Sequence record: PQ511146.1
DNA: 64,000 nucleotides
Origin: Escherichia phage NHEP1
Strand: one strand, 5' to 3'
Position numbers and translations under genes: made by a program. How positions within the stretch are numbered: the first letter of the stretch is position 1; every line of letters starts with the position of its first letter. Below, one piece after another: positions 8,167 to 21,326 of this stretch. The notes beneath the pieces were generated by a model. That model worked only from the letters and a program-made list of their open reading frames with translations. It ran no database searches and was not told where the DNA came from.

Positions 8167-9714
8167 TTAGATAAAACGCTTGAACATAGAAGGTGATGAG
8201 ATTGATGGAATCACACAAGGCAGCGCTACCTCCTCTTTCTCCAGGAAATTAATCGCAGAAGCTACACAGTCGGCCCAGTCGTCTTTTCTGTTAAATGTTG
8301 ATCTTTCCCCGTTGAACTTTTCAAGTTCAGTTAGAAATGCTTCCAGAGTGTCAGGATGGAAACTGGATTTTACAATCCTCACCATTCCTTGTTGGGCAAG
8401 ATTGGCAAAGGGTGAGAACCTTGTCAGTTTAGATTTGTTGGAAGGCATTGGATCTTCTTCAACCCTGAACCCTTCGGCGAGCAAGGATCTGGACGAGGTT
8501 AAGAACTCACTCTTACCTGCCTGACCGGGGTCCACAGAAAATACGATTATGCAATCATCTCCATCAAACTGCGCCTGTTTCCTGATGATCACATCTCGTT
8601 CCCCAGCCTTTTTACAGAACTTTCCTTCCAGACCTGTGGAATACCTACCGTCATCCACGTTCTCAGGACAATAATCCCCGGACAGGTAATAAAAGCCGTC
8701 GCTATCTTTACTTACCTTAACACTGGCGGTAAAGTCAGGAAATTTATTACCGGAAGTTCTCTCGGTTCCTGCTTTATCCCATGCCCTGCAAGATACTGAT
8801 CCAAGAGGTACTCTATCGGCATCACGAAGGAAAGATCTTTGGAAATAGTTTGCACCCTCAGGTTTGGCAAACCAGTTGCCATGAAGAAGCTGGGCTTTTT
8901 CAAGCTCGGGTAGACCTTCAAGGAAAGCAAGGTATTCTGGGTTGTCTCTCAAGCAGACAGGATTATCGAAAATTGTTGCGCCTATAAACGAGAATGACAA
9001 CGGTCTTGGCTTGATCTCCACACCCAGTCCGTTAACCGTGGTGTATTTCTCTATTAACTCCTCTTTAGAGTCTCCCCAGATAAACTCACCGTCGCGTCGG
9101 ATAAAATATCTTTTCTTACCACATTTCTCCGGGTCTGGATACCCTTCATCGTCCAACCACCACCTAACCAGTTTGGCAAGCATGTGTTCTGAGTCGGGGT
9201 TACAGCTGATAACCATTCTTGATGGATACTTTGACTGAGATCGCAGACGAGACATCAAATAGTCTATCTGCTCCCATTCGAATTGCGTGCCTTCATCGAA
9301 GCAAACCATGGTGTACTCAAGGCCTTGATGGTTAAGCTTATCTTGGACATACTCCATGTGGCAGTATTTTACAACGGCCCCTTTTTTGCTCCTGTCCCAC
9401 TTGCCAGTGCTCGGATCAAACCGTGGAAAAATAAACTTATGATCCTTCTCTCTGAACTTTGGTTTAATGTTTTCAGGCAGATCACTGTAAATAGCTACTG
9501 CTTTAGGCCATAGACCACCCTCACCTTCCAACTGTGGAGTTGTTCTTCGGAACATAACCACAGAGCTGTGCGGGTCATCAATAATTTTAAGCGGCATTAG
9601 CTGCAAGAGGAACGACTTGCCAGACCCAGCTGCACCTCCGATCACCAAAATATCTGCATCGTTCTCTAGGATCATCTTCTGCTTTTCAGAACACGGTCCG
9701 TAAATCTTAGACAT
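8167..9714 (-). CDS. terminase large subunit
   Basis: 515 aa; N-terminal Walker A ILVIGGAAGSGKSF; size and placement ahead of portal. Confidence 0.85.
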   Translation of the reverse strand: MSKIYGPCSEKQKMILENDADILVIGGAAGSGKSFLLQLMPLKIIDDPHSSVVMFRRTTPQLEGEGGLWPKAVAIYSDLPENIKPKFREKDHKFIFPRFDPSTGKWDRSKKGAVVKYCHMEYVQDKLNHQGLEYTMVCFDEGTQFEWEQIDYLMSRLRSQSKYPSRMVISCNPDSEHMLAKLVRWWLDDEGYPDPEKCGKKRYFIRRDGEFIWGDSKEELIEKYTTVNGLGVEIKPRPLSFSFIGATIFDNPVCLRDNPEYLAFLEGLPELEKAQLLHGNWFAKPEGANYFQRSFLRDADRVPLGSVSCRAWDKAGTERTSGNKFPDFTASVKVSKDSDGFYYLSGDYCPENVDDGRYSTGLEGKFCKKAGERDVIIRKQAQFDGDDCIIVFSVDPGQAGKSEFLTSSRSLLAEGFRVEEDPMPSNKSKLTRFSPFANLAQQGMVRIVKSSFHPDTLEAFLTELEKFNGERSTFNRKDDWADCVASAINFLEKEEVALPCVIPSISSPSMFKRFI

Positions 9715-10001
9715 TAACCTCTCTCCTTTGGAAACAGTGTTCTTATATAGTCTTGCAAAATGATCAATTTAGCTCTATCATTACTACAAGACAGGTTATT
9801 ATCCCTCATAATGCCAGAATTCACCGCATCTGGCGCACCTTTCTTCAAAGGGATAGCTTTAGCAGGTGGTTTCATAGCACCCTCGGGAGGTTTAACAATC
9901 AACCTTCCTACATCCGGAGGGTCAATCCTGTATTCTCTCTCAACGCTGGTTGCACACCCACACAATAACAAGCACAAAACAACCAGTGCAGTAACTCTCA
10001 T
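9714..10001 (-). CDS. o-spanin (Rz1-like outer-membrane lipoprotein)
   Basis: Signal peptide plus lipobox-like LLLCGC, Pro-rich body, C-terminus ...PKERG resembling lambda Rz1 ...PSERG; 4-nt overlap with i-spanin ORF. Confidence 0.55.
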   Translation of the reverse strand: MRVTALVVLCLLLCGCATSVEREYRIDPPDVGRLIVKPPEGAMKPPAKAIPLKKGAPDAVNSGIMRDNNLSCSNDRAKLIILQDYIRTLFPKERG

Positions 10002-10396
10002 CGAACCTCCTGATTGATACTCTCATTATAAATATCTATTAGCTGATCAGGAAGTGTTGACTTCTTACCTTCAGGAGATTGGAGGTAGATAATCTGCTTT
10101 TCTTTACCTGCCTTCTCAGCCATATTTAATTTATCCTGTAGGTCAGAAAGAGATTTTTCAAGGTTTTTAACCTCCTCTGCGTGGCCCATTTTAATTTTGT
10201 CGGCCTGCTTTTGTTGTTGGTCAAGGATCCGTTCCCACTTTAACTCTGTTGCTGACACACCTTCCTGATAAGCATCATTGAGCTTAGAGTTAAACCAATA
10301 CACGGCACCAAGATAAGCCATGCCTATAGCCGCTGCAAAAACTAAACCTTTTATGATCCCTCTGTATTTACTCATCAATGTTAAAACTGAAATCAT
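9998..10396 (-). CDS. i-spanin (Rz-like)
   Basis: 132 aa; N-terminal transmembrane segment (GLVFAAAIGMAYLGAVYWF) then charged coiled-coil periplasmic domain; overlaps o-spanin ORF. Confidence 0.55.
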   Translation of the reverse strand: MISVLTLMSKYRGIIKGLVFAAAIGMAYLGAVYWFNSKLNDAYQEGVSATELKWERILDQQQKQADKIKMGHAEEVKNLEKSLSDLQDKLNMAEKAGKEKQIIYLQSPEGKKSTLPDQLIDIYNESINQEVR

Positions 10397-10424
10397 TTTA
10401 AGGCTCCAGAAACGAAAAAACCCC

Positions 10425-10445
10425 GCAGCTATACAGCTAACGGGG
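10425..10445 (-). terminator. rho-independent terminator
   Basis: Plus strand AAAAAA-CCCCG...CGGGG; on the minus strand a GC stem followed by UUUUUU, downstream of gene 10502-10771. Confidence 0.45.
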
Positions 10446-10501
10446 CGGGTTAAAATTGAGTAACCTAAATAGATCGAAACTAACTAAAAGGAGACTAATA
10501 C

Positions 10502-10771
10502 TTATCGAGGCACTCGGTGGATGATTCTGACAGTAACCGCATTCTCATTCATCAAGTAAGCATCCACATCTCTGTAAATATAAAACTTCTGCTCGCTATC
10601 AACAACACAAGCTACTGCCCCTTCAGAGTTGTCTTCAAAGAAGACCACAACTGCATCGCAGCTTAGTTCATGATACGACTCTCGAAGATTTACAGCAAGA
10701 GGGTTGAAATCGTCACGAAGATCTAAAGTATGGGTTGGATTTACACGTTCTACAATTTTAAGTGTATACAT
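10502..10771 (-). CDS. hypothetical protein (ERVNPxHTL N-terminal motif)
   Basis: 89-aa ORF with AAGGAA RBS; N-terminus shares ERVNP(T/V)HTL motif and an 11-nt identical core with ORF 52482-52763. Confidence 0.5.
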   Translation of the reverse strand: MYTLKIVERVNPTHTLDLRDDFNPLAVNLRESYHELSCDAVVVFFEDNSEGAVACVVDSEQKFYIYRDVDAYLMNENAVTVRIIHRVPR

Positions 10772-20461: not shown

Positions 20462-20585
20462 TGTAGGAAGGTTTAGTAGGTAACGGTAGCCAATTGAATG
20501 ATGGTTTTTCAATTGGCACCTACATAACCACATTATGCAGTGTTGTTGATCGGGTTAGTTATGAGTAAATTGGAGAGTATGAAAA

Positions 20586-21056
20586 ATGAAACTTGATAAA
20601 AATGTTCAACGAAAAGCTTTCTTGGATATGATCGCATATTCAGAAGGTACAGATAATGGTAGACAACCTACCAAGGATCGGGGCTATGATGTCATAGTCG
20701 GTGGCAAGCTGTTTAGCGATTACAGTAAGCATCCAGGTGTGTACGTTAAGCTAAATGCTAAACTTACCTCCTCTGCTGCGGGGCGCTACCAAGTTTTGGA
20801 GAAGTTTGCTAAACACTATATGAAACAGTTAGGATTACCAGATTTTGGCCCTGCCAGTCAGGATAAGATCGCACTACAATTGATCCGTGAGTGCAAGGCG
20901 CTCGATGATATTGATGAAGGTCGTATTCATCAGGCCATCCATCTTTGCAGATCCCGATGGGCAAGCCTTCCTGGTGCAGGGTATGGTCAGCACGAACAGA
21001 AGATCGAAAAGTTGATCGAGGTGTTTAAAAAGTCAGGCGGTGTTGTCCTAGATTAA
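20586..21056 (+). CDS. endolysin, lambda R-type lysozyme (lytic transglycosylase)
   Basis: Near-colinear match to lambda R: QRKAFLDMIAYSEGTDNGRQ...GYDVIVGG...YSKHPG...AGRYQ...KQLGL.DF.P.SQD..ALQ.I...WASLPGAGYGQ.E. Confidence 0.9.
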   Translation: MKLDKNVQRKAFLDMIAYSEGTDNGRQPTKDRGYDVIVGGKLFSDYSKHPGVYVKLNAKLTSSAAGRYQVLEKFAKHYMKQLGLPDFGPASQDKIALQLIRECKALDDIDEGRIHQAIHLCRSRWASLPGAGYGQHEQKIEKLIEVFKKSGGVVLD

Positions 21057-21059
21057 TCA

Positions 21060-21088
21060 TTGACATGACCACACGGATGTGGTATTGT
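21060..21088 (+). promoter_or_regulatory. sigma70-like promoter
   Basis: TTGACA (21060-21065) N17 TATTGT (21083-21088); spacer contains inverted repeat CCACA-cgga-TGTGG. Confidence 0.45.
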
Positions 21089-21119
21089 TACCCAGTAAAA
21101 TGTTAAGGAGAGTTTAACC

Positions 21120-21326
21120 ATGAAAGATTTTCTGTTGGCAATTTTATTCATGGTAGCATGCTTTGCCTGTGGTGTCGTGTTTGCAGGTGAAACAGCGTAT
21201 CTTGTAGATGTATATCGGGACAATGGTAAACGTATTTGCCTTTATGAAACAAGCCAAGGTGAGCTCTACGAGCTTGTGAAACAAGGCGAAGCTGGATCTT
21301 GTCCTCGGACTCACTTCTTCGAATAA
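21120..21326 (+). CDS. small membrane/secreted protein downstream of endolysin (lysis-associated candidate)
   Basis: 68 aa; hydrophobic N-terminus LLAILFMVACFACGVVFAG; RBS AAGGAG. Confidence 0.45.
   Translation: MKDFLLAILFMVACFACGVVFAGETAYLVDVYRDNGKRICLYETSQGELYELVKQGEAGSCPRTHFFE

Follow-up and report, generated by a model that had tools for sequence, protein, structure and literature searches.

Dispersed lysis genes in Escherichia phage NHEP1, an rV5-like phage: spanins beside the terminase gene, a distant endolysin and several candidates for the holin

Phages T4 and T7 carry their lysis genes (e, t and pseT.3/pseT.2 in T4; 3.5, 17.5 and 18.5/18.7 in T7) dispersed over the genome. On the T7 map, the holin gene lies by the tail fibre gene, the spanin genes by the terminase gene, and the endolysin gene among the genes for DNA metabolism; the holin gene of T4, like that of T7, adjoins tail-fibre genes. 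Phage λ provides the other model, the SRRzRz1 cassette, with an S-type holin gene, the endolysin gene R, and embedded spanin genes. The stretch considered here, 64,000 nucleotides (nt) of Escherichia phage NHEP1 (sequence record PQ511146.1; the whole stretch is called the window), belongs, as judged by its sequence, to a Vequintavirus, an rV5/FV3-like myophage of E. coli. Its lysis genes are scattered: the spanin genes sit beside the large terminase gene, the endolysin gene is about 10 kilobases (kb) away on the opposite strand, and no holin is recognizable. Both the scattered layout and the missing holin are already known for rV5-like phages (rV5 2013, LL12 2019, Gotham 2020, CB7 2020, KPP-1 2023). 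The rV5 paper (2013) found no holin homologue, the Gotham paper (2020) did not identify a holin, and the same gap is reported for KPP-1 (2023). According to the CB7 paper (2020), the spanin pair of CB7, rV5, and PVP-SE1 is not part of a lysis cassette but adjoins the gene for the large terminase.

The window very probably encodes the ordinary three-step lysis of Gram-negative cells by an rV5-type myophage, with the genes dispersed over transcription units rather than joined in a cassette. In this process, the endolysin would build up in the cytoplasm until a holin permeabilizes the inner membrane, and the spanin complex would then disrupt the outer membrane. An earlier note on this DNA had described an Rz/Rz1-like pair on the minus strand between terminase and the tRNA cluster, a λ R-type endolysin in the plus-strand block, and the absence of a recognizable holin. 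All of these open reading frames (ORFs) are present, and the feature is confirmed as real and correctly described, yet it is a published trait of rV5-like phages. The genes concerned are the following (lengths in amino acids, aa; TMD, transmembrane domain).

8167-9714, minus strand: TerL, the large terminase subunit, 515 aa (Terminase_6N, 4.6e-20; phrog_979, 1.7e-208)
9714-10001, minus strand: o-spanin (Rz1-type), a predicted outer-membrane lipoprotein, 95 aa (PHROG 'Rz-like spanin' phrog_1267, E 8e-22)
9998-10396, minus strand: i-spanin (Rz-type), predicted inner-membrane protein, N-in/C-out, 132 aa (phrog_4297, E 1e-48)
10414-10446, minus strand: intrinsic-terminator-like hairpin with a U6 tract (RNA fold -16.9 kcal/mol, z -3.1, then UUUUUU)
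20586-21056, plus strand: endolysin, predicted to be soluble and λ R-type, 156 aa (1AM7, E 3.2e-56; phrog_90, 5e-55)

The endolysin is a λ R homologue, a predicted lytic transglycosylase that would reside in the cytoplasm. It aligns with λ lysozyme 1AM7 over residues 4-154, and thus is a full-length homologue (about 62% identity; 3D3D is matched equally, at E ~3e-56), and its catalytic-Glu motif, AYSEGT, aligns with AWSEGT of the λ enzyme. An orthologue, LysECP26 (156 aa), has been purified and lyses E. coli treated with ethylenediaminetetraacetic acid (PMC9728275). The N-terminus of the endolysin, MKLDKNVQRKAF, contains neither a signal peptide nor a signal-arrest-release segment, and the maximum 19-residue hydropathy of the protein is 0.42. 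Because it has no export signal, the endolysin should depend on a holin, and we infer from this that a holin exists. It would belong to no described family and would be a small, group-specific membrane protein encoded elsewhere. The endolysin gene lies at the end of a ligase/RNA-repair block. Its start codon is 10,190 nt from that of the spanins, on the opposite strand.

The relative AlexBoehm contains, in addition, a SleB-like cell wall hydrolase (MZ501048.1, 57749-58249; Hydrolase_2, E 2e-19), encoded in the part of the genome outside the window and directly upstream of rIIA and rIIB homologues. With its typical N-terminal signal peptide, this protein is a second, Sec-exported muralytic enzyme.

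The spanins are predicted from their sequences to be a two-component pair with separated gene architecture. The i-spanin has K10, R12, and K16 ahead of a single TMD (~17-35), followed by a 96-aa portion in which 34% of the residues are charged; it is therefore predicted to be a type II inner-membrane protein with a charged, helical periplasmic domain. Both ECP2303 and the BASEL phages have an orthologue that is annotated as an i-spanin. The lipobox of the o-spanin, LVVLCLLLCGC, matches the PROSITE-type (PS51257-type) pattern, with the cysteine at position 16 and Ala rather than Asp at +2, although a Cys at -2 means that it fails the strict DOLOP pattern. The mature o-spanin would be short (80 aa) and proline-rich, with nine Pro and one Cys, and it is a member of the 'rv5' o-spanin family, which is listed with separated architecture (Kongari 2018). 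Thus, lipobox, TMD, and family evidence all bear out the spanin assignments.

The arrangement of the two spanin genes ties them to packaging. They are co-oriented, with the o-spanin gene downstream and a 4-nt ATGA overlap at 9998-10001, and the o-spanin stop codon in turn overlaps the TerL start codon as TAATG. Because of these two overlaps, the i-spanin, o-spanin, and TerL genes constitute one translationally coupled unit, and since the TerL start overlaps the o-spanin stop, the spanin genes head the packaging/morphogenesis operon. Through this coupling to TerL, the spanins would be made together with the late packaging proteins. The pair lies on the minus strand between the TerL gene and the tRNA cluster, and the terminator-like hairpin at 10414-10446, directly upstream of the i-spanin ribosome-binding site, divides the unit of tRNAs and an 89-aa ORF from the spanin-TerL operon.

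TerL is here encoded by a single, uninterrupted ORF of 515 aa, in contrast to the TerL genes of rV5 and LL12, which the respective papers describe as carrying introns; apart from this and a 72-aa DUF7205 ORF (see below), the differences from the described Vequintavirus genomes are allelic only. The rV5 'late promoter' motif, TGGTAAAATA, which resembles an extended -10 element, has 17 matches in the window with at most one mismatch, compared to 6.9 expected from shuffled sequences. Among these are a site at 8134-8143, upstream of the portal gene, and one at 6459-6468, upstream of the prohead protease gene. However, this enrichment fails to discriminate among the holin candidates.

Candidates for the holin within the window were drawn from a hydropathy scan of all ORFs, followed by family searches; two serious ones emerged, the 78-aa and 122-aa proteins discussed below, each of which others had proposed before. 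No holin model in Pfam, PHROGs, or NCBIfam matched any small membrane ORF of the window or any of four such ORFs outside it. The gap is not due to the edges of the window: relatives whose genomes are annotated in full show it as well, and it is described in several papers. Five proteins have to be weighed.

The first of these is encoded next to the endolysin gene, and the earlier note had described it as a membrane protein and named it as a candidate for the holin.

21060-21088, plus strand: sigma-70-like promoter, TTGACA-17-TATTGT plus an upstream TG (consensus scan, 10/12 matches, extended -10; a consensus match only)
21120-21326, plus strand: 68-aa ORF with a predicted Sec signal peptide (~1-22) and a 46-aa, disulfide-capable beta domain (phrog_4641, listed as of unknown function)

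The ORF and its position after the endolysin gene stand, but the membrane label does not: as predicted from conservation and from a structural model, its product is more likely a small secreted periplasmic protein than a membrane protein. It is very improbable that this protein is the holin. The idea draws on its position, on the same strand as the endolysin gene and only 63 nt downstream, and on a strongly hydrophobic N-terminal segment (maximum hydropathy 2.81). In holins, however, the TMD is the conserved functional part, and in this protein conservation is lowest in the hydrophobic segment. In an alignment of 10 homologues, residues 3-22 are hydrophobic yet vary freely, and Cys14, the sole possible lipobox Cys, is Met in half of the sequences. 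The segment closes with a conserved small-x-small site: positions -3 and -1 before Gly23 are always small (VFA, AWS, VRS, AWA, TFA, SFA), as at a signal-peptidase I site. Beyond it, the 46 residues of the putative mature protein (23-68) are nearly invariant, including Cys40 and Cys61. Thus, because the hydrophobic N-terminus is variable and ends in a conserved cleavage-type site while the rest is invariant, the product reads as secreted. An AlphaFold (AF2) model, with a predicted local distance difference test score (pLDDT) of 82.5, has a helix at residues 2-17 and then a four-stranded beta domain, for which Foldseek found no structural neighbour in the PDB at E<0.02. Furthermore, the C-terminus is not basic (two K/R and three D/E in the last 20 residues), there is no Pfam or NCBIfam hit and no match to a holin hidden Markov model (HMM), and the ORF has its own sigma-70-like promoter, between the endolysin stop codon and its start codon. 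The family is small, and its 11 clusters, at >=63% identity, all come from rV5-like phages. As speculation, the protein could possibly serve as a periplasmic regulator or protection factor.

Downstream of this gene lies a 72-aa DUF7205 ORF (21337-21555, plus strand), followed by an HNH endonuclease gene (21516-22019). AlexBoehm does not have the 72-aa ORF, and there the 68-aa ORF, which is unannotated, directly abuts the endonuclease gene. The region 21337-22019 looks like a small mobile or indel region.

The second candidate has the shape of a class II holin and lies 21.8 kb from the endolysin gene.

42888-43124, plus strand: two-TMD membrane protein of 78 aa whose C-terminal tail is rich in K/R, the orthologue of rV5 ORF129/gp129 (hydropathy, alignment)

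Kropinski et al. 2013 (PMC3606486) put forward gp129 as the holin, and a class-II-like holin at a distance from the endolysin gene, as in T4, is possible but doubtful. The small size, two strong TMDs (~5-27 and ~37-59), and charged C-terminus, with seven K/R among the last 20 residues, fit this role. In the family alignment, TMD2 (FDDFITIITAAPFWPVV) is nearly invariant, and syntenic relatives of 72-75 aa with only ~30% identity retain the same architecture. The gene is preceded by a strong Shine-Dalgarno sequence, and a late-type motif, TGGTAAAATT, is present upstream, at 42147. However, phage V18, a species exemplar of the International Committee on Taxonomy of Viruses, has lost the gene through a clean, 814-base pair (bp) deletion. 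Positions 87139-87239 of the V18 record (KY683736.1) correspond to 42366-43180 of the window; the deletion occurred at a TATGGG microhomology, removed ORF129 together with the upstream ORF128 (174 aa), and left the flanking genes intact. Besides the spanins, V18 nevertheless keeps an endolysin and all the other candidates described here (the 68-aa, 122-aa, 88-aa, and 104-aa genes). Its endolysin is only 66% identical to that of the window, and the record has its oddities, namely split genes and, at its end, an additional R-like copy that is located between rIIB and rIIA and may reflect misassembly. Consequently, the deletion counts against gp129, but given these oddities it is short of decisive.

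The distribution of the 78-aa family also argues against such a role. The family is present in 115 records but is limited to the genus and a few relatives, whereas the spanins span the whole group, and it has no holin HMM hit in Pfam, PHROGs, or NCBIfam. An exhaustive profile search yielded six representatives, and a scan of IMG/VR yielded one rV5-like contig. In divergent rV5-like contigs, the distant relatives are found in PhoH-ClpP synteny, with lysis genes never beside them, and the 78-aa gene itself nowhere has a lysis gene as its neighbour. Nor was gp129 taken up by the experts who later annotated LL12, Mangalyan, and the BASEL phages. A second endolysin-holin cassette, at a 'putative glycosidase' (42345-42869) upstream of the 78-aa gene, was also considered; it was dropped, with no support from Pfam, NCBIfam, or PDB sequences.

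The third candidate comes from the BASEL annotation, in which the orthologue, bas56_0110, is called a 'putative holin'.

60435-60803, minus strand: membrane protein of 122 aa, with two TMDs at its N-terminus and a helical domain of 70 aa at its C-terminus (BASEL bas56_0110 orthologue)

That this protein is the holin is unlikely. Its two N-terminal TMDs do reach a hydropathy of 3.14, it is found at >=90% identity in 118/118 of the matching Vequintavirus records, and its orthologues in AlexBoehm and WalterGehring are annotated as putative holins. However, the invariant part of the protein is the soluble, 70-aa C-terminal domain, an AF2 three-helix bundle, and the membrane part is replaceable: the relatives P0043 and P0044 have a single, different TMD in its place. 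Since the soluble domain is invariant and the membrane part differs among relatives, the comparison points to a soluble effector that is anchored in the membrane. In addition, the gene belongs to a mini-operon bounded by terminators, in a neighbourhood of small, early-type genes, there is no match to a holin family or fold, and a Foldseek search of the model against BFVD gave nothing informative. The mini-operon itself (60096-60836, minus strand), which has terminator-like hairpins at its bounds, encodes three membrane proteins in a row, of 122 aa (two TMDs), ~41-60 aa (one TMD), and 39 aa (one TMD).

The last two candidates were found by scanning the rest of a complete relative, AlexBoehm, whose tail-fibre module contains two membrane proteins: an 88-aa protein (phrog_1322) with two moderately hydrophobic helices, and a neighbouring 104-aa protein (phrog_5345) with an N-terminal TMD and a coiled coil. 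A holin outside the window, consisting of one or both of these proteins and encoded in the tail-fibre/baseplate module in a T7-like layout, is a tentative possibility. Both proteins are found far beyond the genus, unlike the candidates within the window (373 phage records for the 88-aa protein and 223 for the 104-aa protein). They occur across rV5-, PVP-SE1-, CR3-, and Mydo-like phages, and hits to the 88-aa protein are also found in phi92-like phages and in phages of Aeromonas and Pseudomonas. Thus, their range of genera covers that of the i-spanin (197 records). The two genes are always inside the late baseplate/tail-fibre module, their products are 99-100% identical within the genus, and there is no mass-spectrometric evidence for either protein in rV5 virions.

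Other features of these proteins argue against this assignment. The helices of the 88-aa protein are only moderately hydrophobic, with no TMD at a threshold of 1.6, and the TMHMM and Phobius runs of the rV5 paper likewise gave no TMD. Its tail is acidic or of mixed charge, and some records label it as structural. When the 88-aa family was compared to the T7 holin gp17.5, the hhalign probability was 0.85%, that is, no homology. Neither protein matches any holin HMM, and the 104-aa protein resembles an i-spanin or XhlA more than a holin.

Several points weigh against the overall reading of a dispersed three-step pathway. All of the candidate holins are putative, and none has homology to a holin family. 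The promoter matches are hits to a consensus only, and for the timing of expression, the literature search found no Vequintavirus transcriptome. The signal-peptide call for the 68-aa protein rests on the pattern of conservation and on the -3/-1 rule. Finally, the observations on the 88-aa and 104-aa candidates come from the relatives AlexBoehm, Mydo, and KaOmega, as the region concerned lies outside the window. Taken singly, the 78-aa protein (gp129) and the 88-aa protein are each possible as the holin, to about the same degree, and each is doubtful; the 122-aa protein has a small chance, and the 104-aa protein a slightly smaller one. The remaining probability falls to something else.

A wider proposal, which is speculative and as a whole improbable, is that lysis in the rV5/PVP-SE1/phi92 supergroup relies on a holin family not yet described, whose best candidate would be the 88-aa protein, perhaps together with the 104-aa protein. 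In this proposal, gp129 would be dispensable, as the V18 deletion suggests, and the 68-aa protein might regulate lysis or give protection in the manner of Spackle.

Closely related genomes have the same layout as the window. The region 9000-22000 is 98.8% identical to Escherichia phage ECP2303 across 99% of its length, more than 100 further Vequintavirus (rV5/FV3-like) genomes match it over most of its length, and in annotated relatives the gene order is identical. Thus, rV5, FV3, LL12, Gotham, and the BASEL Bas phages contain the same genes in the same order: the spanin genes lie upstream of the TerL gene, the 156-aa R-type endolysin gene follows a DNA ligase gene, the genes for the 78-aa gp129 and the 122-aa protein are elsewhere, and a holin is not identified. 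Compared to AlexBoehm, the window differs by the 72-aa DUF7205 ORF noted above. Searches with 9000-22000 and 42800-44000 also retrieved ~16-21 GenBank records that are titled 'Campylobacter phage' (MG0656xx, host C. jejuni) and yet are 90-99% identical to E. coli rV5-like genomes; the host labels of these records look doubtful.

The GC skew and the orientation of the ORFs divide the window into three blocks, the first of which contains the tRNA cluster.

~1-15.7 kb, minus strand: late morphogenesis genes, spanins, tRNAs, and small genes
10818-11756, minus strand: tRNAs
~15.7-52 kb, plus strand: RNA and DNA ligases, a sirtuin-like gene, endolysin, nucleases, nucleotide metabolism, and many small ORFs
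~54-64 kb, minus strand: small ORFs

Within the tRNA cluster, the tRNA at 11467-11551 is called by Rfam but not by ARAGORN, and tRNA-Ser at 11259-11349 by ARAGORN but not by Rfam. A 'tRNA-???' at 11062-11160 (97-99 nt, with a 4-base anticodon) scores barely above the Rfam threshold, and its homologue is labelled tRNA-Lys in the record of one relative. The plus- and minus-strand gene blocks converge at 51920-53800, a stretch of ~2 kb that contains no ORF of >=50 aa on either coding strand and at which the GC skew flips. It has only weak repeats and gives no hit in Rfam. An equivalent non-coding gap has been reported for rV5.

When compared to λ, the window combines homologous parts with a different arrangement. 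The endolysin is a true R homologue, and in their functional architecture the spanins correspond to Rz/Rz1, with one type II inner-membrane protein and one outer-membrane lipoprotein. However, the window has neither a cassette nor an S-type holin, its spanin genes are of the separated rather than the embedded kind, the periplasmic domain of the i-spanin has no Cys, and a distance of 10 kb and a change of strand set the endolysin gene apart from the spanin genes. The arrangement is closer to those of T4 and T7, in which the endolysin, the holin, and the spanins belong to separate transcription units. The separated architecture of the spanin genes is like that of T4, their position beside the large terminase gene is of the T7/SP6 type, and homologues of the T4 genes rIIA and rIIB are present in genomes of this phage type. 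Unlike T4 and T7, the window has no detected homologue of a T-type or T7-type holin, and its endolysin is a predicted λ R transglycosylase, whereas T4 has a lysozyme and T7 an amidase.

The present analysis adds evidence that the ORF next to the endolysin gene encodes a secreted protein and not a holin, that the published candidate gp129 is absent from one sequenced isolate, and that the BASEL candidate acts like a membrane-anchored soluble domain. If the 88-aa or the 104-aa protein were the true holin, the layout of the lysis genes would parallel that of T7. Phages of the rV5 type are common in the cocktails used for phage therapy and biocontrol of pathogenic E. coli. Naming the protein that times lysis would complete the pathway for this large phage group and would probably add a new family of holins.

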